A stretch of DNA of 63,979 nucleotides, the filler included, from Ionaspis alba (Eukaryota): the NCBI GenBank assembly GCA_964255285.1. It is 4 parts of 4 records of this genome, joined end to end, with 100 filler letters (N's around TTAATTAATTAA, not from the genome) between each part and the next. Parts side by side here need not be neighbours in the genome. Positions count along the whole stretch, not along the records: positions 1 to 16,805 come from CAXUUL010000334.1; 3 more parts are not named here. One strand, 5' to 3'. Of this stretch, positions 1 to 50,667 are shown in pieces; positions within the stretch are counted from its first letter, which is position 1; every line of letters begins with the position of its first letter. The notes below the pieces were generated by a model that saw only the letters and a program-made list of their open reading frames with translations, did no database searches and was not told where the DNA came from. Made by a program: the position numbers and the translations under genes.

Positions 1-3000
1 GACTGGGGGGTTGGTTGTGGTTCGGGGCGCGGGGGCCAGAGGGTGTGGCGATTGATGGTGGAGGAGGGTTGGTTGAGTTTGTTGGGCGTGCGGGTGGCAC
101 GGGAGTGTTACCCTGGATGGCTTTTAGTCGGTCTGGATGGACACCGGAGACGTCGGCTGATTCGGCTGCTGGTGTTGGGGGGGCTGTTGATGAGGCAGGA
201 GGAGGGCGGTTGAAGTTGGAGGAGCTTCGTGGAGGTGCTCTGGATGATGATGGTCCGGTGGGAGCGGGTCTGTCTGGCACAGTAGGTGAAGGCAGCGAGT
301 TCTGGCTCGAAGGCGGAACTCTTGTATCGATGCTTGGTTGCGGAGCACTGACATTTCGTGCACCACCCCGAGTTGTGGGATAGGGCATTCCATTCGGCAC
401 TCTTGGACCAGATGGAGTCTCTGCATTGAGACGGCCATACTGGAGATCTTGCTGCCGGTGTGTGCCATGTGTGTCTTGGTTCAGGCGGCCATGATTCGGG
501 TCTGCAGCAGGTCCATTGGATGTTGGAGCTCGCATCGATTCTCGAAATCTGTCACTTTGACTAACGGGAGGTCCATCAGCACCACGACCAGTCCTTGGAC
601 CTGTAGGTGTGCGTGAGTCTTCCTGCCTTCTAGGCAGATCGTTGGGTAGTCGACGATTGTCGATGACAGGTCGCTCATCACGATGATATTGATCATGACG
701 AGATGAACGGTGATCGTCTCGACGTGCTGGTGATGATGTCCGAGAGCCACGTTCAGAATTAGGGTGACTATCGTATCTCGAAGACTCAGTACGACGATCA
801 GGAGGAACACTCGCATAGCCTCGCTCAGGCTCTTGGTTTCCATGGATTAATGCTGCCCGATCAGGATGCTGAGCAATTCCAGACCTTGGTGCCGCCATTG
901 ACGAATCTCTAGATGATCGACCTTGCGGATCGCCATTACGTAGATTTTCTGTGGCTTCAGGGAAAGGCCGCTCTCGTAGGCTGCGCTCTGGTCTCTCTTC
1001 TCGCTGAGAGGCTCGCGTTTCACGGCCGTGTGGCCCACCATATCGATCATCAACCTGAGCCCGACTATCGTACTGAGGTCGCCCAGAAACGTTCTTCTCT
1101 CCAGCCCACGTCTGATCCAGTCGGTCTCGTTCACCGTATGATGGTGGCCGTTCAGATGGACGATCATATCCACGAGATGGTGGTCCATAGTTATGTCGAT
1201 CTCCAGGCCGTTCCCGATCTACGAGAGGTCGATCGTTCCGCCCATAATCAGCGGCACGAAGCTCTCTTGAATCCCGTGGGGCACGGTCGCCGTGCCTTTC
1301 AGAGCTTCTTTGGTCGCCACTTCTGGAAGGCATGGGTAGAGTTTCTGGCCGGTTGGGCAGAGAATGAGGAGGGCGACCATTGTTTGACGAATCTTGAAGA
1401 TCTCTTCTTTCTGGCCGCACAGGACGTGGAGGTATGGATGTTTGATTGCCAGTAGAATTGCTCTCAGGTTTCGCAGGCAGACCTGGCGGTTGTGGGAGAG
1501 GTTTCGGTTCTACTACTTGCGATTTAGGCAGAGTCGCTGGTACTGTTTCAGGCGCATCCCGATTTTCTGGTTCGGCAGACTTCAGTCTTGGAGCATCTGA
1601 GCCTGGGGGTTTTGGAGCTGGAGGTTCTTGAGGTGTTGGTGTTGGGAGGGCTTTGGCTGCGGCAGAAGTGGAGGCAGGATCATCGATTTCGCCATCCTCG
1701 CCATCCTCTACCTCCGTCTTTCCCGATGAAGACCCCGTCATCCCGTCAACTCTGCGACCGGTTAGACGAGGAACATATTTCCATCACAACGTTGCTTACC
1801 TAAGTTGAGGACTAGGTTTGAACTCTGGGGCTCTTGGGTCCAACGGCTTCCCACCTTCGCTTTGAGGCTGAGGTGTACTTGGCCTTGCTGAGGAGGACCT
1901 CGTGCTACCACTTACGCCATTGGTTGTAGGCTTGTTCTGTCGAGCCATTAGCTGTGGAACGTAATTGATTTAGACCAGTGTTGAACGCACGAGATTGAAT
2001 GCTTGTGGAAGTACCCAGTCCTTCTCTCGTCGTTTCAGGTTCCCAAGAAGCGAGGTCGCTGCTATCTTGAGATCTTCTCGAGTCTCAGACCTACTCAATT
2101 CTGTCATGCTGGCCACCTGAGCTTGAGCCATCCAATTGACAACAGGGAAATGTAGAACGACCGCTTTGAGGATTATAATTGCATTACGGATGTGCATGTA
2201 TTCGCCACCAGCAACGCAAGTCTTCAAGGCCGTGTTGAGATTCATGTGCCATTTCGACAGAATTCTTCGGAAGTCCTCGTAATCCAAGAACGTAAGGATC
2301 GTCTTCTCCTCGGTCATCTTCTTGCAGAAACCTGGAAGATCCTTCTTGGACCCATAGGCCTCCTTCTCGAACACGGTTTTGTCTGCATGCCAACGACCAA
2401 GATCTTTGAGCACTTCATTCAGGAATCGCCCAAAGCTGTCGGCCTCCTTCGCGGTCAATAGAAAGATCATAGATGTCAATCTCTTGCCGTTGAACAGTTG
2501 ATCCAATAGACCCATTGTCCTGAAATTTTTAGTACCAGAAGAGTGAAGATACTTAATCATCTTGAAGGTATATATAGCGTCCACTGGCGAAATCATGATG
2601 CGCGGCAGGAAGCAATGCTCGATCAGCGCGATGTTGAGATTCTCCCATTTGCCCCAGCAATCGACGAACCAATTCTCTTTCTCCTTACTGAGTCGTGTCC
2701 TAGTTTGCGAATATGAAGTAACTTGATCCTTGAGCTCTGCCCTCAACTTGTCTTGTAATTCTGTCAAAGCCTTCTTCTCCCGGTCCTTCTTCTGGGTGCC
2801 CGCGACGCTGATATCAGAACGATCACTATTGATAGCTGATATCTTCCGTTTCTGTCGATTGATCTCCTCGTCGTAGCTCTGGGTGGGAACCACAATGTCT
2901 CCCAGGGACAGTTGCCAGAATGTGACATAGAACCGCTCGCTGAGAAGACTCCACGTAGGCTCTGGTAATACAGGTCGGATCGCTTCCACAATATCTTGAA

Positions 3001-6000
3001 GTACTGGATGCAATGATTTTGCGGCAATCTTAGACTTTGAACGTGGTGACTCTACCAATTGTTCCGGCTGGACGCCACCCTCCGGAGTAGTATCATCATC
3101 GACTCCATTCGTTTGTGGCGTTTCTTCTATGGTTGCATCGGTAGCAGTCTTTTCAGAGCCTTCAGTAACCTTAGCTGCTGCTTCCGTCATCTCAACATCT
3201 TTTTCATCGCTGGACTGGGTGGCTGGCTTCTGAGATACGTCTCTTGATCTTTGGCTCTGGTCAGAAGCCTTGCTGTCGTGCTCTTTGATCTTTGCTGCAA
3301 TACTAGGCCTGCTGATCCAGAAGGCAACGCTGGGCTCGATGCCAAAGTCTCGGATGAGACGAGCAACGTCAGGTACCAGAGAGTCGAAGTCTTTGATGCT
3401 CAAGTTACTTCGCAGAAAGTCAATGTATTGAGTGAGGACTCGATGTATTTCATCGAAAAGATTCCCCAGGAGTTTGAGATGCGCGTCTGGTTCGGGGATC
3501 TTGAAGATACTTGTTTGTCGTTCTTGGGCAATGGAAATCAAGAGCGGGCCTGCGAGTTTCGGCTCGGCAAGTGACTTTGTCAAACGACGAGCACTCGTGA
3601 CAGATTCGTGTCGCTTGTCCAGAAGTTGTAGCATCGTCTGGGCTTGCAGAAGCTCTCCTCCGGCCATTGACAAGACCTGAGCTTCATTGAAATCTGTATC
3701 CGAGACTATTCCCGCCATAGACCCAATGATCTCTTCCAGGACTATCAGATCAGTCGAATTTCCCTTCCGGAGCTGTTCCGTTACATATTGAAGAATAGGT
3801 GTAGGATTCATGACGGAGTAGCGCTTGAATGCCTTGCCAGCGAACAGTGACAGTGACAATAGCCATTTACTCGTGAGCATGCCGTCTGCTTGAACACGAT
3901 TGCGGCCGCGAACTCCTAGTGAGCTCATCAAAGACCAGGTGAGTACGTCATACCCAAGATAGGTGAAATAACGGGCGCACTCAACGACTACCTCCACAAG
4001 ATTATCGTACGACTCTATTTGGCTGATAGCAACTGCGAACACCACACCAGGAGATGCGGTTGCCACCTTTGCAAGATTCTTTGCCATTTGTTTGAGATTT
4101 GTTTTGCTGATTCGTTTGAGAACATCTTTCGTCTCCGCTCTGACTTGGTCAAAGGCAGCTTTGATATCTGGTGAGCGAGAGGTCGCTCCATTATACCACT
4201 CGGCGTAGATAGAGTATCGCGTCGAAGTGGGGAACTGTTTGATTAGATCAAATACCTCCGTTACAACACCAGGGTTAGACTTCGTCAAACTGAGAGCCGG
4301 TACAAGGAGTCTCTTGGACAAATCGATCCATCGTGCTTTGTTGCTCTCCGAGAGGTCATTAGCTAAGGAGTGACTACCAATGCGAGCGAGCTTGATTAGT
4401 AAAGTTGGGTCTTGCCCGATCTTCACCCCGACATAATTGAGAAGCGTGCCGCAAAGAAGAAAAACGTCGTCGACTGTCTGGCAAACGGGTACATTGTCAG
4501 ACCAGTCGTCCCAATAGAAGCGGTAGTCGGTTCCTTCGTTCGTATCGTCCTTATCCAATTGAGCCCATCGTAAAATCTTCCGCACTGGTTGTTCAACTCT
4601 GCGGAGTTGGCCCTTTGGTACACCCCCCTGATCAGGATCCACAACCTGGTCTTGTTCCCGCAGCTCGGAAATGTCTTGTAGAGGCTGAAGAGGTTCATAG
4701 ACTTTGCTGAGACAATGATGTAGAATGCGGTGGATGTGTTCAGGAAGGTCTGGAAATGCGTCCAGCAACCATGGAAAGCGACCGAGGATATACAAAGATT
4801 CTGGGATTGCACCAATACAGAGCAGACTCTTGAGTAACTGAACCTTTTGGTCGATAGGAATTGGAAGTTCTTCTTCCACATTCTCCTTAGTAGCTGGGGT
4901 GTCTTTCTCTGTCGCATCTACCTTAGAAGGTAGGCCTCGGTTCCCATCTGTCTCCCGCAATCTTCCTGTGGCAGGAATAGTGTCATCAGACAGAGCGCCC
5001 GCGTTCGCCAATGCATTTGGAACTCCACCTCCAGGTCGTTGGAGCTTTTCTCGCTCTGCCTTTTCTTTCAACTTCTCTTCCTTCACGCCATCCATATCCT
5101 CGTCTGCAGGCCACAGATGCGGATACAGATCCCGAAGCGAGATGAAACCAATCTTAATAAGAAGCGCCGCAAGGTAGATAAGGTTGACCGGCAGGATGTC
5201 TTGAGGGTCTCGAGCTGAAGAGCTATAGAATCGAAGCTTGAAACCAAGCACTTGCGCAGCGATCTTATTGCCTGGTGGAGGTAGAGTACCAGTGGCTTCG
5301 ATCCACTTGCGATCTTCATCAGCAGGAGACGTCTCTTCTTCTGGCTCTACAGTCAAAGCAGATTGAATGGCAGTCTTCTCAGCTTTGCGGCCACCAATCT
5401 CAAAGAAAGCAGGCATTCCGATCTCACGAACTCTATCCCAGAACTGTGCATCCCTTTCATTCCTTGCGTGAGCGATGTCACTCTTCTCCTCTTCGCTCAA
5501 GACAGTCCAAGCCGCAGCACTGGGCAAAGCCCATTTTGGTAGGCTACTGAGGCCAGACTCGGAATCTTCCCTGCCATCTAGGAGCTGTTGCTTGGGCCAC
5601 CAAGAGCTAGTCCGAAAATATTTGACGAAGAAACGGTACTGCTTGACAAGGACAGCCGCAAAGACGTCGAGTGTGACGTCGAGTACCCTCCCTACATCCA
5701 AGTCGAATGTCCCAATCATCGCCTTCACACGCTCAAAAGTGTCCTCCACAACCTCAGACGATGGCGGCTCGTTGCTACTAGTTGTGAAGAGCTCAGTAAC
5801 CAGCTTGGAGTATCCTTCGGTTTCCTCTCTCAATAGATTGTAGTTTGATTGCCGATAGAGTAGGTTGGTCTGATGTCGGATGCCCATTCTGTGAAAGGTA
5901 TCGCGAATGAGGCCCAAGTGGACCAAAAGGTTGGTCTCGAGTTCCTGGCGCATCAAGAGGGGTGGAATTCCGGTGGATAGTACCAAGGGCTGTAGATTCT

Positions 6001-6730
6001 TATTAGTAAAATCACTATCCGTCAGAATCGATAGACAGTCGAGAAAGAGTGCAGCTCCATCAAATTTGTCCACACTTTTCTCTTCATCCACTTGAGGATT
6101 TGCGATTTCAAGGATATCTTTGACCACGGTGCCAGCCTCTCTAGCGTCTAACCGGCCATCTAGTCCAGATCTTGTAATCTCCTGGAAGATTAATCCTAGC
6201 TTCACTATATCCTCTTCATTCCGAGTTTCTTTCCCTAAAAAAACCAATGTCGAGTGGCCCGAGTGCTGCCATGAAGACGTTATATCGTCTGTAACATGCT
6301 CGTACATGTAGACCGGTGGAGGGGTAGGGGAATCTTTCGTCGTTTGTGTTGAAGCAGCTGATGCGGGGACGGTTGAGTGATTTGTAGGAGGCTGGGCAGA
6401 CTCGTTCTGGCGTTGTACAGGAGCCGATGGCGGTGACATTGCTGTATTGCTTTGCCGTGAGGGTATTGGGATTGCGTTCGGGCTCTCGAGCGGACTTCGG
6501 GGAGGAGGGCCACTTCGACCACCTCTGCTGCCTCGTCTTCCACCTCTTCCGCGCGGGTCTTGGTAGTCACGATATCCATGTTGCTGCAAGCCCTGCTGTT
6601 GATAGCTTTGTTGTGCTAGGCTTAAGCTGCCAGGACGGTGCGGCGACGGCCTCGATCCGTCATTCGAGCTGTCATGGGAATATGTCCTGTCTCCCCGCTT
6701 CCGCTTCCCACCACCACCACCAGGCGCCAT
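1..6730 (-). CDS. THO2: THO complex subunit 2 (Tho2/THOC2), 3' end beyond the window edge
   Basis: The 1591-aa ORF contains typical Tho2 segments (LYRQSNYNLLREETEGYSKL, DLDVGRVLDVTLD, EYMHIRNAIIIL). Likely start is the ATG at 6730 (MAPGGGGGKRKR). Introns at 1937-1990 and 1752-1799 join it to an open low-complexity R/D/P-rich tail that reaches position 1 without a stop. Confidence 0.95.
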
Positions 6731-7134
6731 GCAATCTTTGCCCAAAAGGGCAGTCTAGAAAGTGGCAACCGTTGACTCGAGCGTCCACATAGATAGTGCT
6801 GTTGTTTGTGGAACTGGAATGTAAGAATTCTTGAAGTAGTAAGGTTGGTGAGAATGGAGACCGCGTCTAGATTTGGGAGAAGGCGTAAGGGAAAGACGTA
6901 TGACTATGCATCCAGTTTTGAGGTATGCGTTGACACCGGAGAGTAATCAGGGAAAGTCCCAATATGGGCGAATGTGTATCAGCATCGATGATAATGGAAG
7001 ATAAAAGATCTCAGGCACCTTTGCAGCTTCAAATTCACTCTCATTGAGCTTAGCGCGACCGCGACTGTTCTTTGTCGGGGTAACATATTGCCGGTGTCAA
7101 GCTCGTAGGGTTTGTCTCAAAGCTCATTGCTACG

Positions 7135-8260
7135 TAGAACCGGAGCTACGGGATACCTTGGCGGAGATGCGCTCTATGAACTTGCGCAGAGTCCTCCAGA
7201 GTATGAAATCTCATGTCTAGTCCGGAACAGCGAGAAAGGAGCCAAGATAGCCAGTCAGTATGCCAAAGTCCGGCTCCTGTATGGCGGACTAGACGATAAG
7301 GGAATCTTAGAAGTTGAGGCTAAGAAGGTAGATGTTGTACTAAGTACATAAAACCTGAGATCTCTTTGATCCACTCTGATCTGAACACGACGACAGATTT
7401 TGCCAGTGCAGATCATGTAGAAGGAGCTGCTGCTCTTGTGGCGCGCATCAGCCATGGTGCCGAAGAAAAACCTGGTTATCTGATACACACTTCGGGCACC
7501 GGCATCTTGACCTCCACTGATGCAGACACTAAAATTTACGGCGAACTGGATTCCAAGGCTTTCGATGATTGGGAAGGCGTTGGGGAAGTCACCTCGCTCC
7601 CAGACATCGCTCTGCATAGGTTCGTGAACAAAGTCGTTCTGGTCGCGGGCATTGAGAACGAGCCTAAAATTAAGACTCCCATCGTTTGCCCTCCGTTGAT
7701 TTACGGCCAGGGGCGTGGCCCTGATAATCAACGAAGCACTCAAGTACCCGAGCTGGCCAAGGCTGTGCTCCGGAGCAAGAAAGGCATACAGGTCGGATCT
7801 GGCAAAAATCTCTGATGCAACGTTTATGTGGCAGACCTGGCTAAGATACATGTCAAGCCGGTTAAGGCAGCCACCGCTGGGGGAGGAAACGTGACCTAGG
7901 GACAGGAAGGGTACTTTTTTGCGAGCATGGGGAGCACGTTTGAAGTGATGTCTACAAACAGGTGGCAGTCTCGGCGCATAACGCTGGTTACATTCCCTCG
8001 GACAAGGAGTTGTGATCATCTATGGTGATGAGGCAGAAGAACTCTCACCCCATGCCCCGGGCTCTGGGGGGACAAATTCTCGATGCAGAGCCATACGAGC
8101 AAGAAGATTGTTGAACTGGAACCCTGTGGCTGAAAGTCTCGACGATGAGATTCCCAAGGTTGTTGAAGTGGAGGCGAGGAGCCTTGGCTTGGTTGAAGGT
8201 CATGCGGCCAGAGTTCCCGGTCAGCAATTGAACCTCTCTGCGTCAGCAACAAAATTTTGA
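7135..8260 (+). pseudogene. NAD(P)-binding extended SDR / epimerase-dehydratase-like pseudogene
   Basis: Rossmann motif TGATGYLGG, then HTSGTG and CPPLIYGQGRGP. In-frame stops occur where Trp is expected (GKNL*CNVY at 7813; NVT*GQEGYF at ~7897; GEHV* at ~7941), there is a frameshift near 7925, and no clear start exon. Confidence 0.8.
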
Positions 8261-8733: not shown

Positions 8734-10722
8734 ATGGACGATGGTGGCAAAGCTTTAAGAATATCAATGGCCCTGCCCCGGGTCCAGCCCTACGAAATGC
8801 CTGAGCAGAATGGAAATGCTCTTCGCAACAAATAAGAGCGTCCCTTCTCTACATAGGTCTCATATGGGCCTTGAAGAATAAAACTCCACTTCAGGAGATT
8901 CAATCCTATGCCAGTGGCTATCCTACTGATATTTTTAGGGCCGTCATCGCTGATTCGGTCAAGGGGTATCTGTCAATCTTCTTCGCACTTCAACGCAATG
9001 AGGTTTCAGTAGTGTCTATGCTCTTGAATGTCGGGGCGAATCTCAATGCGCGGTGCAAGCCAGGGGGTGTGCCGATCCTCGGTTTTGCCATTTTCCATGC
9101 TGAGTACGAGGTCATCAACCCATCGGAGGTGGTGAAGACGTTACTAGCAATGGGGGCAAAGCCCTATCTGATCCTAAAGGATATGTGGGAGGATTACCTG
9201 GAGAAGCCAAACGCAGTCTTTCTCCGGGACAAAGGCACCAAGAACCCCACACCATCATGGTGTGTTCCTGAACCTCAGGAGTACTCTTACGAGAAATCTC
9301 ACACTTACTCAGCGCTATTTTCTAAACAAAGCTCATCACTTAAAGTCTCCCAGTGGAAGAAAGAAGCAAGTAGCAGCTTGTCACAACATCACGTCCTTGC
9401 TTGCGGTGCCTTACCATATCGTGGGGCAGTCTCTGGGAACTAGNNNNNNNNNNNNNNNNNNNNNNNNNNNNNNNNNNNNNNNNNNNNNNNNNNNNNNNNN
9501 NNNNNNNNNNNNNNNNNNNNNNNNNNNNNNNNNNNNNNNNNNNTCACGTCCTTGCTTGCGGTGCCTTACCATATCGTGGGGCAGTCTCTGGGAACTAGCA
9601 TGGCTGTGGCACGTCTCTTTGGGCACTTTGCAATGAACAAAAATAAGCCCTTGGCAATGGTCTTCACGGGTCCGTCCGGGCATGGGAAGAAAGAGCTCGC
9701 AAGGCAATGGAATATCTGATCGCCTCTCCAGCCATTGTTGTCGATTACACAGAAATGAGAGAGGAGATGGACTTGTTTGATTGGAAAGGAGAATATCGTT
9801 CTGCACAGGAAGGAAGTCCTGTGAACAAATTTTGGACAGAACACAAGGGGCAGAGATGTATGTTATTCTTGGACGAGTTCGAAAAGGTTTCGGACGACGT
9901 CCGACAAGCACTCTTGTTGGTGTTTGACTAAGGTGGGGTAGTTGTCACCCCTTCATTTGAGTAGATTATTGTTAGCCTTCCTTGTTGCTCGATCTGTACT
10001 GATCCGGTCTTTCCAGGCTTCTACCGCGATCGTCAAACTGGTGACTGCTCGAAGACGATTTGGACCATTGCCACAAATTTGGCAACTTCCATGATTATAA
10101 GATTCTTTCGGGATCATCTTGAGGACAAATGCGAAGCAAGTCAATTTCAAGTACCGTTGGACGAGCTTAATACAAGCATCAGAAGTGTTTTCATCCAGGA
10201 GCTTGGTGTACGTATTGTGCCGTGACACTGCTGTTCACGCTGGAAATGTGCTGTTCTGACCAAATGTAGGCTCCGATTACCAGCCGAATGTCTGTCGTAG
10301 TACCGTTCTTCCCATTCACCTCAGGAGAGCGAGCTGTAATGGCGCACAAATATCTCCTCGATCTTCGCGATACCTTCCGGGAGCCGATCGGCTTGAAGGC
10401 AAAGAAGCTGGTACGCCACAGCGATCTGCAAATTCAGAACGACGGACAGCTCTGTATGTCGCTTACAGAAAAGTGGTAAGACATCAAAACGGGAGCGAGA
10501 TCTCTGCAACGAGGAGTTGAGCGAGAAGTTGAACATCCGTTTGTAGACAGATACTACTTCCCTGATGAAAAGGTCACCAAGAAGCCGAACGATGGACTGT
10601 TGCGAAGGTACACCATGCAGTTTAGTTCCATTGCTGATGGTCTAGACGAGATTGTTGTGATTCAGGATGGAGCAACCCCAATCACGAATGTTGTTGCGCC
10701 CGCTACTCATATGGAAACATAG
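8734..10722 (+). pseudogene. Ankyrin-repeat + ClpB-type AAA+ ATPase pseudogene
   Basis: Ankyrin-like segments (FFALQRNEVSVVSMLLNVGANLN; EVVKTLLAMGAKP), Walker A GPSGHGKKE, Walker B LFLDEFEK, sensor-1 TIATN and sensor-2 GARSL. Frameshifts at ~9275 and ~9707; stops at 9929 and 10477. Crosses an N gap. Confidence 0.75.
9389..9598. other. Assembly gap (100 N, 9444-9543) with ~55-bp duplicated flanks
   Basis: The sequence tcacgtccttgc...gggaactag is identical on both sides of the N run. Confidence 0.95.
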
Positions 10723-12082
10723 CTCGAAGAAAGCAGCGCTGTTAGGGTACTATAGCATGAATACATTTGAAAGTTGTTAACAGATCCTCTGTCTTTGCAC
10801 TTTGGCCCTTACAGAACCGAACAGCATATGGGCAGCGCTGATAGGCCCAGAGCTCGTCTTTATGCCTCCTTGTTGTAGATTTTGATTTGATCTTTCAAGC
10901 ATGATTAAATGTAGTGGTTGTGGAAGCCTTGTTTCTCGTTCTTCTTCGTTGCTAGCTACTACCATTCTTCCGACTATATATGATTCGTGCCTACTGCAGC
11001 ATGTCGATTTGCAGAAGGCGTAGCGACGCCGATCCCAAGAGAACTAACTCATCCTCAATATTATCCAGACGGTATTGAAATTAGAGTATGCTTCTACTTC
11101 TACCTTGCCACATTCTTGATTTCAGGGCCTGGTTCGTCTGCAGATCGCGGCAGTCGTCGACAACTTAACAAAATTGAGCTAGTAGAAGATCTAGCGTCAG
11201 TCGGGGAAGAGCAAGACGAAGATGGGGTTCGTCAGGGGCAACCTCAGCTCACATCTTTCCTGATATACACCAGGAAAGTCGAATACTTTGCTAGCTTCCC
11301 GTCTATTGCAGGTCTGGATCTGGAATCCGAAGTCTCCAGCACAGTATTGTATGTTTCAATAAACATTCTTTCACCCAGGTTCTGTGTATACTGCATAGAA
11401 CAATATCCCTCAACTTCTCAGCATCTTTCAGGAACACCATTGTGAGTCAGTTCTTTAACTCTCGTTTTGATGGGCGCCAGGAGGTTCCTTCCGAGAACTT
11501 GCTAAGAGCGGTATCCAGCAATTTTGACGATCAGTGTGGCAAGCACAATAGCGACTAAATATAGAGTCGTGACAGTGGTTCAGACACCTTCAGTCGTTGG
11601 AAAGGAGACCACAGCCAACATGGCTAGGATTTTGAGCGCCCAGAATCAAAGTGGTAAATATCCAGAGTCTTGCTAGGAAGTTGTCGAGGTCGGCAGACGA
11701 CATTCCCGGTAGAGGAGATGGAACGGGTATTTATACACAACAACAGACCAGAGGAGCTTCCATACATTGATATTGCCCTAGGAAACAGAAGCAGCCACAA
11801 GCAAGATCACGCAATACCAGTCTGAAGGCAATCACGTGCTGGAGCAGCTGCTTAGGTATGGGTGCTAAGCGAGTAGCTATTTGTAGCCATCTCTTACTCC
11901 CACCTCCAACACTTGGATTCTAGACCAACCTGCAACACCAAAACAGCCTCTCATCGTCCCAGCATCTCAATCTAACAACGTCTGACAACCATCATGTACC
12001 GTCGTCGAGATTCAGGAGTAAGTCATGAACGTTTCTAGCGTCCAAAGAGCGCAACGTAGTAACGTTCTCAAAGCAGGATGTG

Positions 12083-12991
12083 ATGATGCCTTTCAACACG
12101 CCACGACCAGCTCTGCGACATTCTGTGAAACACCTGACCTGCAGTTTCTGGGCAAGCGGTAACTGCAAGTACACGGCAGATAGTTGTCTGTATGCACATG
12201 CATGGACAGACCAGCTAGCAGATCGTCCAAAGGCGGTCAAACCGGGGAGTTGGTAACCCATCTCATTCAGAATGGCAGCAGTGACTAACCTATGGCCAAG
12301 TGCCGGCTGTGGCAGGTCGGAACTCCAAGCTCAGTCTTCCAGCATACCGTGACTGGAGAGCAATGACTTTTGGAGAGGAACGTCAGCAGAAGACGGAACC
12401 GTCTGGTTCATGGCTGCGGTATGCCAATCCAGGGTTTGGCTCTAGTCCGTCAGCTTTCCGGCCGCGTACTCTAGAGGCACCAGAAAAAACTGCGAGCATT
12501 GAACCTTCTGCAATGAACCCAGAGGCCACGGTCTTTGAACCAGAGTACGTCCGACAGCTTCGTCAACAGGAAGGGAGGATCGAGAGGCTGGAGCGTTTGA
12601 TCCAAAACCAGGCGGAGTTGATCAGCGAAGCCTCTAGAGACATCGAAGAGATGATGGGAGAGCTTCACTGGGCGTCAAAGGATATCAAAGAAGTAAGAGA
12701 CGCATTGAAAGCAGGGAACGTAAATGCAGCTATCAATACCAAGAAGCTTGATTATCGAGCTATGGATATTGACGGTATTATGAAGAGGCAAGGCAACTGG
12801 AGAAAGGCTTTACACAGCGTCTTGATTCAGACAAGAGAGGCTCTAGGACTTGAAGACGAGGACATTCGGGAAAAGTAGGTAACGCAAAATGACCTATTCC
12901 AAGAAATAGAAAGCGGAACTGACCAGCTGGTAGAGAAAGAGCATACAGGGTACTGTCTGCCAACGATGCTGCTCCTGGTGCAAGCCGTTAG
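12083..12991 (+). CDS. CCCH zinc-finger + PAM2-like motif + coiled-coil protein (cluster gene A)
   Basis: Exon 1 (12083-12248) encodes SVKHLTCSFWASGNCKYTADSCLYAH (C-x7-C-x6-C-x3-H). A phase-1 intron 12249-12300 (branch ACTAAC) joins it to MPAVAGR, then SAMNPEATVFEP and heptad-like QQEGRIERLERLIQNQAELI. A probable second intron at 12875-12933 gives stop TAG at 12989. Confidence 0.8.
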
Positions 12992-13898
12992 AGTCTCGTC
13001 TTGCCTTGCTTCCGTTCAGATTTGTCTAAGGTCTTCGTTGTTGTTCTCATTTAGTTCTCGTGGATAGCATCGACGGTGGGAGCACTGCATAGGACGTCTG
13101 GAACTCAAGTATCATGAAAGGAAATAGGATTTTTCGGCTCTTCTCTTTCTAGATCAATAACAGTTCGCGGAACAACGACAACCAAGCGGGGTGTCCAGGA
13201 GATCAGGGACAATCAATCTAGCAGAATCGCTAATAGGGCTGGTGGACCGGCCAGTGTAAATAAAACGACCATACCGGTGGTGTACCGCAATTATCATCTC
13301 CTGTGCTAATACTTCAACGCTTGATCATCCGAGACCAAGCCTATCTTTGTTGTGCTCGAAAGATACCTCGCACGATTTACCAAGATTCCTTACCGACTTG
13401 ATCCATCGTTCTATCCTCTGCCGACAAAGGCTGCAGATCCCTGAGAGAAGACCTTGGATACCCGAGAAGACCTCTGCCTAGCCACAGAGCCCTTGTTATC
13501 CGCCGAGTTTATTTCCACCGATCTGACACGGAGTTCACTATTCTTCACGAAGAAGCACTGCACCGTCTCGACTCGACTCTCTATCAGCAATCAGCGAAAG
13601 TTACCCATCGGACCTAACGCTTGACTTTACGTCTTCCACCATACAGCTCTGTACTCAAAGTCTCCGATTTAGGGATCTTGACATTACGAGAATCTGCATC
13701 AAGCGCCTTGTATTACGCACCAAAGAACTCAGTCGCCGTGATCCGTCTCGAGATCTCATCCCTCCCCGAACAGAGGCACATCGACTCTTATTCTCCGGCA
13801 GCCAAGGAGGAACCGCACAGCATCCTGAACACGCATCTTTCCCTTTTCCTCCATACTCAATCTCGTCAGCTACCCGGACTTCCACAACATTCGTCAAT

Positions 13899-14557
13899 AT
13901 GGCAAGTCCAGAGAACCATTCTTCTCTACCACTCAGCGCCCCGAGAGGTCTCAACCCCGCGGCACCAGTATTCGTGCCACCACAACGAGGAGAGCGGAAG
14001 GAACAACATGCACACACCGAACCAACCATAGAGCATGTTCACAATATATATGATGGACCTCGCCCTCGCCCTGATCGCCACGGTGCGCGTATGGTTGCCT
14101 GCTCCGCCAAAACGACTGGTGAGTTTCTCGTCTCGGTGAAGCAACCTGTAGCGCAGAGATTGATGATCCAGTAGGCATCGACGAAGCCAGCCAGTTTCTA
14201 GCTCAATGGCGAATGGAAACCGCTCCGCCTTCTCTGCCAGACTATGGTCCTATCGGAGGGCCAGTCAAGAAACCTCTTGGTAGCGTTGAACCGAAGGAGG
14301 TTGCTATGAGCTGCATCACAGAGATGCAGAAAACGAGAGACATGCTCCAAGCAACGACTCATACGTTGGTTGACAGCTGCAACAAGCTCGTTGCACAAAA
14401 TGCTCTAGCACCAGGTCATCGCGACAATAGAACAAATGCATCGGACTGCCAGGAGGCCATGAGGAGGATGAGAAGGGCGATTCAGGAGCAGATGGATAAA
14501 GTGAGGGAGCTTAGTAGGCTGGAGATGGAGGCCCGTAGTCGCTTTGAAGAGATTTGA
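13899..14557 (+). CDS. Small PAM2-like motif protein with helical C-terminus (cluster gene B)
   Basis: Exon 1 (13899-14118) carries RGLNPAAPVFVP. A GTGAGT intron (14119 to 14171 or 14174) joins in frame to ORF 14213-14557, which ends in helical EAMRRMRRAIQEQMDKVRELSRLE. Confidence 0.7.
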
Positions 14558-14773
14558 GGAAAGCATACGAAGTTTTGACTAGCACACTTTGAGCTGCTTC
14601 AACGCTACTTGTAATGATTATCTCCAGATTGATCTATGATGGCAATAATGATGTTGGTTTAAGACTTCAGCCACGCCCAGGGGTTCCTTTAAGTCAGAAG
14701 CGCAAGATAGTTGTTCCATTCCGTAGCCCGATCCCAGCGAAGTCGCTCCTCCGCATCCCAGCCTAGCAGTCTC

Positions 14774-14981
14774 CTGTTAATGTCCTTACTCGAGCTTGTC
14801 CAAACCCCTTAGGAGGATGTGTCGATTNNNNNNNNNNNNNNNNNNNNNNNNNNNNNNNNNNNNNNNNNNNNNNNNNNNNNNNNNNNNNNNNNNNNNNNNN
14901 NNNNNNNNNNNNNNNNNNNNNNNNNNNCCTGTTAATGTCCTTACTCGAGCTTGTCCAAACCCCTTAGGAGGATGTGTCGAT
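14774..14981. other. Assembly gap (100 N, 14828-14927) with ~54-bp duplicated flanks
   Basis: cctgttaatgtcc...atgtgtcgatt is repeated on both sides. Confidence 0.95.
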
Positions 14982-15661
14982 TTGTGAACGTGTCCCGGTC
15001 AGCCGCAGCCATGACCTCGGTGACCATATCGACAGGATGTCAAGGGCGGTTGCAGGATTCCGCTCCAACCAAATACGCAATATATGCTCTATCTGGCAAT
15101 ACACAGCGGTCTAGATTGTGCCTGGTGCATGTTAACAAAGTCACTAAACGATGAAATCAGGCATTAATCACTCCAGGTATAGGGAGGTATCACCTGTCCT
15201 CAAAGCTGTGGTTTCTGCTCATACCAGGATTTGGCGAGATTGATACTGAATGGTATAGTACAGGACTACAATCTTTTTTTTCCTTGATGAAGTTGAACGT
15301 GCCCTCAGTATGAAGCTGTGCATCCCACCACCTATTGTACAAATTGCCGAGACTATTCACTCAACTAAACGCTTGTTGTCTATTCGTCACCGTACAACAC
15401 AAAGCGAATGAAAGCTATATTAGAATCACGGCATGTACCCATATGTGTACATGTAATTCTGAAGCAAACAAATCAAGCAAGCTTTGGTCAACGAAACGCG
15501 CTTCACAATTTGGAGTCTACCCAAATATTGCCGGCTCGTACATCCTCTTTTCGCTCAATATTGCTCCACATCCTTTCCACCTCCAAGAGGCACCGCTTCA
15601 TTCAAGCTCTTCTGGCTTCAATTTAGTACAATAACTTTGATCTCCTTCCACAACCGACAAG

Positions 15662-16703
15662 ATGGCTTCCTACCCGACCAGGCCAATGATGAGTCCGAAT
15701 TCCTCGTCTCCAACACCGCTGCCATCCGTCAAACACCTTACTTGCGCTTTCTGGGCTGCTAATGGCTGCCGTTATTCGGACGAGGAATGCAAGTATGCCC
15801 ATCATCACACAGGCTCCGTCGCTGAGATGCCTATCTACACACAAGTTGGCAGTACGTAACGGACCAAATGACTCTGGCGAATTTCTGACACATCTCAGTG
15901 CCTGCTGTAGCTGGACGTGCTGCACGCGAGCGAGCGCAATTCTTACCTATGAATCCCCGCCCTCTGGATCCAAACAAGATGGCTCAGCGTCCTACATCAG
16001 CAAAGCACCAAGACATCCGTGATCTTCTTCCCAAGGATAAGGCTGGCGGAGATGTGTCTCGTACAGGATCTTCAGACGGGGAACCAAAAGGTTCGTGCAG
16101 TATCTCAAAATCAGAATGTCATCTTACCAACCCCACAGTGACAATTCCACTAGACCGTCGTTATCTAGAAAAAGCCTACTCGAAAAGTAGTGACGATCCC
16201 TTCTACACGGGTGTTACTTCATCTAGGATCAGCACTCAATCGCCTTACATGCCACCATTCCAGGCTGTCAAAAGCTCTCCTGACGTTTACCTCAAGCGCA
16301 TGAAGCTCCTGGAAAACGTAATCGAGATGCTTTGGGTTTCGGTCAAGGCAGCAGAAGGCGAGCTCAGAGAAGGTGGCCGTTTTCTCATGGGACAAATGAG
16401 CGTTGACAGTATTGCCGAGACTAGCGATTCTCACCTAGAATTAGCGGAGCAGTTGAAGCGGCTGCGTAACGTTGCAAAGGAAGATCTGGCTGAGGCTGGC
16501 GCTACCCGTGTGACCAAGCAGTGGAAAGAGAGGTTCAGGTATGTGACTTCTACGTTGCATGGACCTTTTGTTATGGCACTGACCTTAGTAAAGGAATAAT
16601 GGCATCAATGCAGGTCAGGCAGTCGTGCCTGAAGCTAGTAAAAGAGACACCAGATCAGCCGCCACCGACGAGCGGAACCTTCAGGCTGAATCTTGAAAGA
16701 TGA
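15662..16703 (+). CDS. CCCH zinc-finger + helical protein, paralog of gene A (cluster gene C)
   Basis: Exon 1 (15662-15851) encodes SVKHLTCAFWAANGCRYSDEECKYAH. A phase-1 intron 15852-15898 precedes MPAVAGR. A second phase-2 intron 16539-16588 leads into the frame ending TGA at 16703. Confidence 0.8.
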
Positions 16704-16805
16704 CAAGACTTCGGTTACACAAAGACCGTTTGTCTTTGTGTACTGTCATCATCAGCTTCACCTCTTTTCGAAGCGGTCCTCTCGCTAAATCTCACGAAAG
16801 TCACG

Positions 16806-16905
16806 NNNNNNNNNNNNNNNNNNNNNNNNNNNNNNNNNNNNNNNNNNNNTTAATTAATTAANNNNNNNNNNNNNNNNNNNNNNNNNNNNNNNNNNNNNNN
16901 NNNNN
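16806..16905. other. Artificial contig linker N44-TTAATTAATTAA-N44
   Basis: A six-frame-stop 12-mer embedded in Ns, identical to the linkers at 33687 and 50568. Confidence 0.97.
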
Positions 16906-17953: not shown

Positions 17954-19583
17954 TTAGCCTTCAATCTGCTTCAACAGCCCAGCCATATCAATGCTCTTTG
18001 GCCGCTCTATAGGAAGTCCCAAAGCCCTATCCCATATAAGTTGCGCCAAAGGGCCCAATCCTCGGCTAACACCAAATATTGCAGTGTAGTATAGAGTCTC
18101 ATGAAAGCCGTAATGATGAAAGAGCACGCCTGAGGAACTGTCTACGTTCGGATAGGGGTTCTTCGTCTAGGCCATGATATGAGCATCATGGAAGGACATG
18201 GGGCAAGGGAATGACATACCTTTCCGTGCTCCTTTAGCACGCCAGGAGCGACCTCCGAATTCTTCTTCACTAATTGGAACAGAGGATCACTGGCAATCTC
18301 AGGCCTGGACGAAGCAAACGCCATTAGGGTCTCAAATCGAGGATCTGGCTTTCGAAGTACACCATGACCATAGCCGGGAACAACCTGGCCAGACTTCAAC
18401 GTGCTCCAAAGATAGTCCTTGACATCTGAATCTGAGTACGATGTTCCAATATGCGATTGCATCTTCTGAATCCATCGAAGGACTTCCTGGGCGGCCAGTC
18501 TAAAATCTATCAGCACAGACCTCCACGCAGCAGGAATCTAGAGACTCACCCATGCAGTGGTCCAGCTAAACCCTGAAGCCCAGCACTGTAGCTGAGAAAT
18601 GGGTCACTCAGCGCACTTCCCACTAGATGTGTTGCATGAGCAGAAACATTGCCTCCTTCATGATCGCCGTGAAGTGCCAGGTATAACCTTAGTAGATCCT
18701 GGAAATTCTCATTCTGCTTCCCGCCCATCCCTATCATGGCTGCATAATTGTATGACCAATCTTGCTCCACATCAACAACCGCCGGTAAAGCTCCACCACC
18801 ACGGTATGAGTTCTGATATATCTTGGCTGCGATGGTCGGTAATTTGGCAATAAGTGATATGCTGTCCTCGAACGTTGGTTCCCAATACTCGGTTTTGTTA
18901 AGGCCCCTCTCATAAGCTTTGGCGAAGGCAGAGGTATGATTCAAAGCAGAAACAGCGCATGCGAGCTGGGTCATTGGGTGAAGATCCTTGGGGAAGTCAT
19001 CCAGCATCTTCTCAACGAAGTTGGGCAGTGCGGACTTCTCTGCAAGTTCTCTAGAGAATGCACGGATTTGTGTGGTAGAAGGCACTTGGCCGGTCAAGAG
19101 TAACCAGAACATGGCTTCGGGAAGCATTTCCGTGCCTGTCGTACCCTTCGGAAGCTCATTCTGACAATCATTTATGGATTTGCCATGAAACCTGATTCCC
19201 TCATTTGCGTCCAGCACAGAACCCTCCCACAACATAGCCTTCAGTCCTCTGGTCTCCGTCAACACCGTATTTTTATCGTATGGTAGCATCTGGCTGACCT
19301 CATGCCTCCAATGGTATTCTCCACTTTCACATCTCCAATGACTTTGCTGGCATGGCTCTTCACCTTTTTCAGTAATTCCCTCTTTTCCGGGATTGCATTC
19401 CGCAGCGTTGTTTTCAAGTCTGGTTCGGCAGAAGCTGAGTACGTTCTGGTGCACTTGACGGTGATTTGACGAGGAGAGGTTGACTGAAGTGATAGATGAG
19501 CAAGCTAGCCAACAAAGTTATTTTTTGCACCATGCCTGTATGCTCCTGAGAGCTTTTATTGTCGTTCGAGTACCAAGAGCCAT
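17954..19583 (-). CDS. mcsA: 2-methylcitrate synthase (citrate synthase family), mitochondrial
   Basis: Motifs [50 protein letters not shown] and NPYPNVD. N-terminal [14 protein letters not shown] resembles a targeting peptide. Four introns. Lies head-to-head with methylisocitrate lyase. Confidence 0.9.
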
Positions 19584-20186
19584 ATTTGGAGGAATCTGTT
19601 GCCCGCGCAGGCTGGAGAACGTGGGAGTAAACGCTGAAGTTTGATATAAGTGAATCTGATCTGGGTGTGCTTTGGATCTTGGCTTTCAAGCTTCAGGTCT
19701 CAATTGACAACAGTGTTGCAGCTATCACCAAAATAGCGCTGGAAGAGACAATCACATGGAGGGGAGCTTGTCCTTATGGATTTTGTCTCCGCATACCCGA
19801 TCTGCGAGCGAGGGCGGGGAGCCGTTGCCAACCGGACCAACCGAGGTCGTCCCCCTTGTCAACTGAGTGCTTATATGACGAAAATTGCTGTCCATTTTAT
19901 GTCGCTGGGAAATCCACCTCAAATCTCCATAACGCTCTGTAAATACTCTCTCGTTACATAAGATAAAGCTTTCCTCGGGTTGTTGTCTATTTGGTCTTCA
20001 TCACTCCAAATCATGCTGGGCACTTCCTTCTGAATTGTTGCAAAGCCGCTGAAACGTTCTTTTCAAGTCCTTATTGTGGGAACGTATTTCTCGCAACTGG
20101 TGTGATATTGAAGATTCATTGCTTAGTCTTATGGCTTAGAACGCTTCATAATTCAAGATCGAAAGGTGAAACAGAGAGCGAAGATC
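19584..20186. promoter_or_regulatory. Bidirectional promoter of the methylcitrate-cycle pair with FarA/FarB-type and CreA-type sites
   Basis: 603 bp between divergent ATGs. CCGAGG at 19841, CCTCGG at 19973 and SYGGRG (GCGGGG) at 19814. Confidence 0.6.
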
Positions 20187-22266
20187 ATGTTGCCTAGCTT
20201 TGCTCCTCGAAGTGCATCGAGAGCTCTCGTGCGCGGCAAGCGGCCGATAGTATTTCGGTCCCTCTATTCCACCCCTGTTCAATTTATGAACTCATACCTT
20301 CCTCCTGTTGAACACCCCGTATCATCTGCTCTTCCAGCGGACGCATATCAACTTCTTCCAGCAGTCGAGAAACTGGGCGCTTCAGAGGATGCATTGTTTG
20401 AGCAGGAGGTACAAGATGTCGAGCAGTGGTGGGCTACCCCTAGATACGAGGGTATCAAGAGGCCATATTCCGCAGAAGACATAGTCAGCAAGCGTGGATC
20501 TCTGCAGCAGACGTACCCAAGTTCTCTAATGGCAAGGAAATTGTTCAATCTGTTCAAGGAAAGGGCCGCAAAAGGAGAACCAGTTCATACAAGTACGTTG
20601 TCATTGATAGAACTTTCGCATGTACATGACTGAAAGCTGCTAGTGGGCGCTATCGACCCTGTGCAGATGACACAGCAAGCTGCAAACCAGGAAGTCCTTT
20701 ACGTGTCCGGATGGGCATGTTCGTCCGTTCTTACCAGCACAAACGAAGTGTCACCAGACTTCGGCGATTATCCTTATAACACGGTACCAAATCAGGTTCA
20801 ACGGCTATTTAAAGCACAGCAGTTGCACGATCGAAAGCATTGGGACGCACGAAGGAAAATGACAGCAGATGAAAGAAAAGAAACGCCATATACTGATTAT
20901 TTGAGACCAATCATTGCCGATGGAGACACTGGGTAAGTTACGAAGTGTGTTGACTTCCTCCACATCGCTGACTCCATTTAGGCATGGCGGACTTTCTGCT
21001 GTGATCAAACTTGCGAAGCTTTTTGCAGAGAACGGAGCTGCAGCAGTCCATTTCGAAGACCAGCTCCATGGCGGTAAGAAATGTGGCCACTTAGCAGGCA
21101 AAGTTCTTGTGCCTATCGGAGAACACATCAACCGTCTAGTAGCCTCTCGTTTTCAGTGGGATCTGATGGGCTGTGAGAACCTCGTCATCGCCAGGACCGA
21201 CTCCGAAAGCGGCAAGCTCTTGAGCAGTGCAATCGACATCCGAGACCATGAGTACATCCTAGGCATCACTGAAGACGTGGAGCCCCTCGCGGAAATGCTC
21301 CAGGTCATGGAAGCCGAAGGTGCTCCTGGGCAAGAAATTGATAAGGTGGAAGCTGAGTGGGTAAAAAAACACAAGCTTGTCACATTCGATGAAGGTTTGT
21401 CAGCACCTTTGTCATTCTGTTCCCTTCGTCGGCTGGAATACTAATCATTCTGTAGCTGTGGTCAGTCATCTGCAGTCAGAAGGCGCCGATAGGAACAAAA
21501 TCGAAGAATATAAGGACAAAATTGCTCGTGACCGTAATCTACCATTAAGCAGGCGACGTACTCTTGCTGCCCAGTATACACAGACTCCGGTCTTCTTCTC
21601 CTGGGACATTCCGAGGACACGAGAAGGCTTCTATCATTACAAAGCAGGATTACCTGCTGCAACGAAACGGGCCATTGAGTATGCGCCTTTCGCAGATCTT
21701 TTATGGCTTGAAACTGCAGATCCGAGTGTGCAGAAGGCCAGCGGATTTGCTCGCGAGATCCACGAAGCTCATCCTGGAAAGCAGCTTGTGTACAACCTCT
21801 CCCCTTCTTTCAACTGGATGGGTCAGGGCTTTGATGATGCCTCCCTCAAATCATTCATATGGGATCTTGCAAAACATGGGTAAGCTCTTTTTGTTCTGTC
21901 AAAAGTAACGAGCACATAGGGGCTGATTCAACGTACAGCTTTGTTCTTCAGTTGATCTCACTCGCGGGTCTACACTCGACTGCAGCTATCACAGCTGAGC
22001 TATCCAGAGAATTCAAGAAGGATGGTATGCTAGCTTATGTAAAGCTCGTTCAACGACGAGAAAAGGAGCTTGGCGTGGATGTTCTAACGCATCAGAAATG
22101 GAGTGGCGCCGCATATATTGATGGCATAATTGGAGCCATCCAGAGTGGGAGTAGCAGCAGTAAGAGTATGGGCGAGGGGAATACGGAGACCGGTAGGTAC
22201 CTCAGAATCTCTTGTATTGAATGTATCGACTGATCATGTTTCTGTTCCTCTTGTTTAGGATTCTAG
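20187..22266 (+). CDS. mclA: 2-methylisocitrate lyase (ICL family), mitochondrial
   Basis: Catalytic KKCGH and [11 protein letters not shown]-type residues PDFGDYP and QLISLAGLH, versus FITLAG in ICL. Arg-rich N-terminal presequence. Five introns, with a tiny last exon ending TAG at 22266. Confidence 0.92.
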
Positions 22267-33686: not shown

Positions 33687-33786
33687 NNNNNNNNNNNNNN
33701 NNNNNNNNNNNNNNNNNNNNNNNNNNNNNNTTAATTAATTAANNNNNNNNNNNNNNNNNNNNNNNNNNNNNNNNNNNNNNNNNNNN
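33687..33786. other. Artificial contig linker N44-TTAATTAATTAA-N44
   Basis: Same linker as at 16806; it truncates creA. Confidence 0.97.
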
Positions 33787-50567: not shown

Positions 50568-50667
50568 NNNNNNNNNNNNNNNNNNNNNNNNNNNNNNNNN
50601 NNNNNNNNNNNTTAATTAATTAANNNNNNNNNNNNNNNNNNNNNNNNNNNNNNNNNNNNNNNNNNNN
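50568..50667. other. Artificial contig linker N44-TTAATTAATTAA-N44
   Basis: Third identical linker. Confidence 0.97.

Follow-up and report, generated by a model that had tools for sequence, protein, structure and literature searches.

Lineage-specific, fast-evolving expansion of a conserved CCCH zinc-finger gene coinciding with PAM2-like motifs in Ionaspis alba

Background

The CCCH zinc-finger proteins of filamentous fungi have been little studied (PMC9742485). In a stretch of 63,979 nucleotides from the genome of Ionaspis alba (GenBank assembly GCA_964255285.1), hereafter called the window, we describe a cluster of three small genes, A, B and C, in which CCCH fingers, PAM2-like motifs and helical tails are found in different combinations. 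Parts of this kind are known from several systems. In Pan3, the contacts made by the one finger (60-100 uM) and by a PAM2 motif (40-150 uM) are each weak and gain from the avidity of the dimer (PMC4158885). Unkempt is an RNA-binding CCCH protein in which a PAM2-like motif in a disordered region positions the protein on the mRNA and a parallel coiled coil in the C-terminal helical region dimerises it (PMC11009413). Upa1 and Upa2 of Ustilago maydis are fungal PAM2 proteins that bind the MLLE domain of Pab1, Upa2 dimerising through a coiled coil, and the PAM2 consensus is given as xxLNxxAxEFxP (PMC4466420).

The cluster shares with Pan3 one CCCH finger, a PAM2 motif and a helical region, but genes A to C and the further copies D and E described below encode proteins of 200-310 amino acids without the pseudokinase or the C-terminal domain (no Pfam match in any exon). 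The PAN3-type finger model PF25586 gives 13.6 bits for A and 15.8 for E against a cut-off of 25, and its true match in this genome lies on another contig (C331), so that an identity with Pan3 was ruled out. The likeness to Unkempt ends where that protein has its coiled coil and the cluster has one finger and a predicted two-helix hairpin, while Upa1 and Upa2 are far larger, have no single CCCH finger and are tied to Rrm4. Makorin MKRN1, like A, D and E, has CCCH and PAM2 on one chain, and Unkempt carries tandem fingers and a RING. No RING was found by Pfam in the cluster exons, and the tandem fingers or RING of Unkempt, Makorin, MBNL and TTP have no counterpart in genes that hold one finger each. 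Judged by their sequences, the cluster genes are none of Pan3, Unkempt and Upa2. Neither the family nor an array of this kind was found described in the literature searched, most subscription papers lying outside it; FoDbp40 and a Trichoderma C3H1 gene were considered by description only.

Gene structure

A preliminary description of this DNA proposed three spliced genes in the same orientation, and this was confirmed: the introns are GT..AG and the proteins are open after splicing. The finger exons do appear as separate short frames, at 12029-12256 in A and 15641-15859 in C. Gene A, first placed from 12083 onwards, probably begins upstream with an exon of eight codons at 11994. The features of the three genes are as follows.

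11994..12878, plus strand: gene A, 257 amino acids, three exons (11994-12017, 12077-12248, 12301-12878), open spliced frame with GT..AG introns, intron position common with relatives
12122..12199, plus strand: A, SVKHLT lead-in and C-x7-C-x6-C-x3-H finger (motif reading, profile)
12249..12300, plus strand: A, phase-1 intron between finger exon and PAVAG, its position common to C, D and E and to 8 of 11 related loci
12303..12359, plus strand: A, family motif PAVAG-x-N...P-x-Y-x-x-W-R (invariant columns, alignment A4)
12513..12542, plus strand: A, PAM2-like MNPEATVFEP directly before the hairpin, fitting xxLNxxAxEFxP at N, A, F and P, with M replacing L
12543..12842, plus strand: A, two long helices, a predicted helical hairpin (AlphaFold2)
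13899..14557, plus strand: gene B, 200 amino acids, two exons (13899-14118, 14175-14557), fingerless, probable paralog (spliced frame, tail profile)
13950..13979, plus strand: B, PAM2 motif LNPAAPVFVP (Pfam PF07145, E 0.0017, 18.4 bits against a cut-off of 20)
15662..16703, plus strand: gene C, about 310 amino acids, exons 15662-15851 and 15899-16538 and a last exon of 16589-16703 or 16594-16696, its acceptor being uncertain (spliced frame)
15725..15802, plus strand: C, lead-in and C-x7-C-x6-C-x3-H finger (motif reading, Pfam)
16273..16536, plus strand: C, helical tail ending with the family motif L-x-x-AG...W (tail profile, rank 1 of 1036 open reading frames of this genome, E 0.026)

The architectures are those first proposed: A combines a CCCH finger, a PAM2-like motif and helices, B has a PAM2-like motif and a helical tail and no finger, and C has a finger and a helical tail and no PAM2. 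In A and C the order is SVKHLT-C-x7-C-x6-C-x3-H, phase-1 intron, PAVAG. The finger intron lies at the identical base in 8 of 11 related loci, and the remaining three are intronless, the finger running straight into a PAVAG-like motif; since the intron is shared and the intronless loci show the spliced junction, the gene models are independently supported. The Pfam scan gave E 0.0016 and 0.035 for the fingers of A and C, under the curated cut-off. Gene C may hold one more, in-frame intron at 16091-16153.

A conserved family, normally in single copy

The finger exon of C matched 462 proteins at E<=0.001, and a family profile of 17 rows gave 320 matches among 5365 candidates. Full-length members with a single finger occur in lichens and Onygenales, among them Lobaria, Pseudocyphellaria, Blastomyces and Emergomyces, and their layout is a disordered N-terminus, the finger, PAVAG and a helical tail, with PxYxxWR in the lichen-type members. 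They are named only as hypothetical or C3H1-type proteins, which bears out the preliminary statement that no named family is involved. The family finger, SVKHLxC-x7/8-C-x6-C-x3-H-xx-T, is found in A, C, D and E with all zinc ligands retained; these four score 71-85 bits on profile A1, which was built including them, B having no finger and the sixth copy, F, being broken. The solved fingers nearest to the family profile are those of MBNL2 and Yth1 (PDB, E 0.0005), and the family has aromatic residues in alignment with the MBNL2 finger, a likeness from which RNA binding by the family finger is inferred. A word search with the finger exon of A returned three candidates, none scored, and the best ESM Atlas values (0.77 for unnamed C3H1 clusters, 0.81 for an unrelated entry) are leads only.

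One intact finger per locus was seen in 24 of 24 metagenome loci, 15 of them long and representing about seven distinct lineages, as L030-L036 and L038 are near-identical. The Lobaria immixta gene MMC22_006727, Blastomyces BDDG_09070 and their kin have the finger, its lead-in, PAVAG, intron position and neighbourhood in common with the I. alba copies, and a predicted hairpin resembling that of A; they differ in having one copy per locus, no consensus PAM2 and slower evolution. From these comparisons, A to F, B with probability only, belong to what is a conserved, apparently undescribed and normally single-copy gene of the Pezizomycotina.

Among the relatives with several fingers, chromo, OB-fold, PHD or Myb domains are joined to the fingers (40 proteins scanned of 150 listed). 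The lichen proteins P0001-P0004 and P0151-P0186 (Teloschistales, Letrouitia) have RPA-like OB folds followed by 2-8 such fingers, and others have a chromodomain and 3-6 fingers of this type.

Further copies and the ancestral site

Searches of the I. alba genome with the finger exons revealed two more intact fingers and one broken finger, all on contig C243. Contig C249 (L014, 3967-4590, minus strand) holds a gene of greater distance, in which two fingers of this type stand in tandem. The three copies on C243, all on one strand, would be the second half of an array.

G000:C243 1253-2193 (L012): gene D, 292 amino acids, with MNPDLTPFVP, finger, PAVAG and a helical-looking tail
G000:C243 3596-4650 (L012): gene E, about 306 amino acids, with LNPAAPIYVP directly before the finger
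G000:C243 5262-5900 (L012): gene F, broken, beginning MPLNPQAMPFMP, its finger with a stop and one cysteine lost

Both D and E have the family intron. DNA and tail searches of this genome gave no more copies; a DNA pattern for PAVAG was at chance level (44 places against 30 in the control), 32 of the 44 being read without a single family member and four others being A, C, D and E.

The neighbours of the cluster in the window are the following, under names assigned from their sequences, as also for ETF-beta, ArfGAP, EF-G2 and Vps17 below.

1970..6754, minus strand: THO2-like gene, synteny anchor, in 13 of 24 related loci
7109..8257, plus strand: epimerase-like gene, conserved neighbour present in 13 of 24 related loci, here interrupted by stops and shifts of frame
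8805..10722, plus strand: ankyrin and ClpB-like AAA gene, broken (Pfam scan, comparison with related loci)
16806..16905, no strand: artificial linker, an N run with TTAATTAATTAA, following the last base of contig C334 (16805)

On C334 the order is THO2 (minus), epimerase (plus), ankyrin-AAA, A, B, C and then, about 100 nucleotides past C, the contig end. Contig C243 starts with D, E and F, followed by ETF-beta (minus), ArfGAP, EF-G2 and Vps17. In L029 and L030 a single CCCH gene (plus) stands between THO2 (minus) and epimerase (plus) on one side and ETF-beta (minus) on the other, so that order and strands are those of the C334 end followed by the C243 start. THO2 and the epimerase-like gene occur together in 13 of the 24 loci, ETF-beta in 12 and both sides in 11, and ArfGAP, EF-G2 and Vps17 are present in other related loci; the I. 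alba copies match this THO2 / epimerase / ETF-beta / ArfGAP / Vps17 block. The simplest reading suggests that A to F form a single array, six genes or more, which occupies the ancestral site and is interrupted by the end of a contig; this physical unity we infer, as the ends of C334 and C243 do not overlap.

With at least six copies the cluster is not the self-contained module of three genes first described. It does lie next to pseudogenes, its left neighbours being broken, yet "accessory segment" was not the right term for a locus that is syntenic and conserved, the broken neighbours themselves belonging to the conserved block. The epimerase-like remnant is about 50% identical to open frames in L029 and L030, and of the 24 loci L037 alone has an ankyrin-AAA homolog, with a longer frame, within this block.

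PAM2-like motifs

The strict pattern [LM]N..A..F.P occurs in three of the six I. alba copies (A, B and F) and a relaxed pattern, composed after the motifs had been seen, in five (adding D and E); C has none. With none expected (200 shuffles, mean 0.0), the PAM2-like motifs announced for the cluster are far above chance, and only one other match was found in 110,443 residues of this genome, in a protein with a Pfam PAM2 match. At the consensus E the motifs of these copies have P or V. Pfam PF07145 (gathering threshold 20 bits) gave 18.4 for B and 15.5 for F.

Neither pattern occurs in any of 73 single-finger homologs, 17 of which extend more than 90 amino acids past the finger, or of 183 multi-finger homologs, so PAM2 does not characterise the family as a whole. 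Since five of six copies carry it against 0 of 73 homologs, PAM2 looks largely lineage-specific. A looser pattern in the DNA within 1.5 kb on either side of the finger matched in 4 of 24 related loci. Two of these loci (L019, L042) and protein P0129 share L[SR]xxAxPYVPA, so that one further subgroup has a PAM2-like motif of weaker form, for which there was no Pfam match.

As to the partner, the genome has one MLLE match, in a Pab1 with four RRM domains, the MLLE being split by an intron. The Pab1 proposed as a docking partner is therefore present. Rrm4, the other partner that had been named, is unlikely: no Rrm4-type MLLE protein was found in this assembly, which may be incomplete, the sole MLLE match is that of Pab1, and Ascomycota are reported most likely to lack Rrm4 (10.1101/467787).

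Two further observations concern PAM2 elsewhere in this genome. An open frame of 1977 codons on G000:C606 (L052, minus strand) has two PAM2 matches, one over the Pfam cut-off, and would be a large multi-PAM2 ascomycete protein. The C-terminal part of the THO2-like gene holds a PAM2-like LDPRAPEFKP (window 1814-1843, minus strand; no Pfam match in the window gene), kept in L027, L029-L036 and L038, for example as LNAEAVEFKP and LNPKAPEFQP; a literature search on Tho2 and PAM2 gave one general paper.

Helical tails and gene B

AlphaFold2 predicted helices at 81-136 and 142-180 of the tail exon of A (pLDDT, predicted local distance difference test, 83-95) and two long helices at 153-230 and 236-273 in the Lobaria ortholog, with the same layout. 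Foldseek gave no match to the predicted fold at E<=0.001, and the best VIA-align hits (Z 10.1) were generic helical hairpins. Compared pairwise, the tails are not significantly alike (z 2.1 for A-B, 0.1-0.2 for B-C and -0.6 for A-C). A profile of 12 ortholog tails, from which the I. alba genes were excluded, scored C 13.3, B 12.7 and A 8.2; against 500 shuffles B and C exceeded 499-500 (p 0.002) and A had p 0.004. Among 1036 open reading frames of this genome (142 kb), C ranked first (E 0.026), B second (E 0.073) and A fifth, the third being an antisense frame, and D and E were not matched. No homolog of exon 2 of B other than B itself was found among eight candidates of 69-221 amino acids. 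On this modest evidence B is probably a paralog that has lost its finger. The extra copies, the synteny, the single-copy relatives and the tail profiles together support the expansion by duplication and domain loss that had been proposed.

Divergence and constraint

The I. alba copies are 54-62% identical to one another in the core, compared with 65-88% among five orthologs, and in a tree of 33 cores (64 columns) their branches measure 0.84-0.99, the median being 0.15. Run X1 contains, for parts of the locus, a second version (depth 40-60 beside 60-105), at 12052-12629, 14471-14500 and 16636-16731, with 30-50% of the depth and up to 7-10% different in gene A. It could be allelic or come from a second strain or a sister species, and contigs drop variants. 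In the finger and PAVAG of A there are five synonymous changes and one non-synonymous, and in the linker three and nine (Fisher p 0.043, from 40 of the 56 differences in X1); the ratio of non-synonymous to synonymous polymorphism (pN/pS) is about 0.06 in the former and 1.2 in the latter. Five listed variants in the intron of A (12249-12300) leave GT, CTAAC and AG intact. In the second version of A, then, the finger is under constraint and the linker drifts freely. Run X2 covered the stretch in short pieces (depth 2-6, five differences) and was uninformative.

Proposed function and alternatives

We give somewhat better than even chances to the I. alba copies being a tandem expansion of the single-copy gene, most with PAM2, which act as non-catalytic adaptors of messenger ribonucleoprotein (mRNP). 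The ancestral gene would have encoded a disordered N-terminus, one CCCH finger with MBNL spacing, PAVAG...PxYxxWR and a C-terminal helical hairpin, and tandem duplication at its home locus in this lineage would have given A, B, C and, past the assembly break, D, E and the broken F. By analogy with the Pan3 N-terminus or Unkempt, the proteins, if expressed, would be cytoplasmic: the finger would bind single-stranded RNA weakly, PAM2 would dock on the MLLE of Pab1, and the two weak contacts would sum on polyadenylated mRNA, where the hairpin would oligomerise or recruit an effector altering translation or decay. A, D and E hold both motifs on one chain, C resembles the ancestor, and the fingerless B could be a competitor or scaffold tethered to Pab1 without RNA contact. 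Several points weigh against this proposal. The ends of C334 and C243 do not overlap, two neighbour genes and F are pseudogenes, and the tree neither supports nor rejects a single clade of the I. alba copies (three changes, p-AU 0.39, approximately unbiased test). No motif of the cluster attains the Pfam curated cut-off (fingers of A and C, PAM2) and the PAM2 motifs of A, D and E have no Pfam match at all, the relaxed pattern was drawn up with the motifs in view, and a downstream PAM2 could be missed in the many homologs that end soon after the finger. The tail homology is weak, the score of A (8.2) equalling the best reversed control and that of D not being significant, and the variant counts draw on part of the differences. 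Moreover, verified PAM2 motifs proved dispensable for the function of Ustilago Upa1 and Upa2 (PMC4466420 for Upa1).

The copies might instead be redundant duplicates drifting in a decaying region, one keeping the ancestral job and the PAM2-like motif being inherited from the founder without a new function. The broken F, epimerase and ankyrin-AAA genes nearby, the long branches and the pN/pS of about 1.2 in the A linker fit such drift, which we nevertheless regard as rather unlikely: five frames are open with intact splice sites at so low a core identity, the zinc ligands are all kept, the finger region of A has a pN/pS of about 0.06, and the motif persists in linkers that cannot be aligned, its position in A differing from that in B, D, E and F. 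The preliminary description raised the idea of a split module, B with PAM2 and C with the finger pairing through their tails to rebuild the function of A in trans. The two genes are complementary and adjacent, the tail of each gives a weak match to the family tail profile, and Unkempt, Pan3 and Upa2 are reported to dimerise; yet the tails of B and C are unlike pairwise and, given that the two motifs stand together in A, D and E, simple differential loss accounts for what is seen with no need for pairing, which we believe improbable. A predicted complex of the two tails scored 0.02 against a mark of 0.34, run with neither alignments nor folded controls, and was counted neither way.

Tandem expansion with accelerated divergence, and the presence in one DNA run of a second version, 90-95% identical, for parts of the locus, could also be expected of a conflict system, an array diversified against foreign or selfish RNA (mycovirus, transposon or non-self transcripts) that blocks it through Pab1. 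ZAP of animals would be an analogue. Non-synonymous changes are not in excess in the finger, Pfam and fold searches found neither a nuclease nor any other effector domain, and the second version, read at this locus alone, may stem from another strain or a sister species, so that we hold conflict to be doubtful. Equally doubtful is its fullest form, a conflict-driven repertoire of mRNA-surveillance adaptors derived from a housekeeping CCCH gene that gained a Pab1-docking peptide; in such a repertoire, versions with finger and PAM2, finger only and PAM2 only may combine through their hairpins, may pick different RNAs (viral, transposon, non-self or symbiosis-stage) and may vie for the MLLE pocket with Pan3, eRF3 and Pbp1. 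If true, it would be a fungal, combinatorial system of translation control or restriction, independent of RNA interference. Finally, the finger might bind DNA or protein in the nucleus, the motif docking on something other than Pab1. The multi-finger relatives with chromo, OB-fold, PHD or Myb domains point this way, as does a Fusarium CCCH protein, perhaps not of this family, that is reported to act on a promoter. The closest solved fingers are RNA binders, however, and the motif obeys the PAM2 consensus at fixed positions, which makes a nuclear role very unlikely.

Layout of the window

The window is not one scaffold but several contigs joined by N runs with artificial linkers; further linkers lie at 33687-33786 and 50568-50667, the contigs so joined are unrelated and sorted by size, and adjacency across linkers carries no meaning. 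A divergent pair of citrate synthase-like and isocitrate lyase-like genes (18546-22233), which we take to be probably methylcitrate cycle genes, is not a neighbour of A to C, because all that lies right of 16805 is another contig; the mcsA/mclA-like genes (18.5-22 kb) were ruled out as cluster neighbours on this ground. The N gaps at 14774-14927 and 9444-9543 are flanked by 55-nucleotide duplicates and are assembly artefacts, and run X1 spans the first with 34 other letters.

Conclusions

Taken as a whole, the cluster is an expansion, lineage-specific and fast in its evolution, of a CCCH gene that is conserved but unstudied, and it coincides with PAM2 motifs. How far it surprises is limited, because Pan3 and Unkempt already show the logic of CCCH finger, PAM2 and helical dimer. 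What is new is the outline of a conserved, syntenic and apparently undescribed family, together with a lineage in which expansion and PAM2 occur jointly. We are inclined to see in this a natural experiment, in which gain of a short linear motif would make an RNA-binding protein a Pab1-linked regulator, and the expansion in I. alba hints at the role of the single-copy ortholog.

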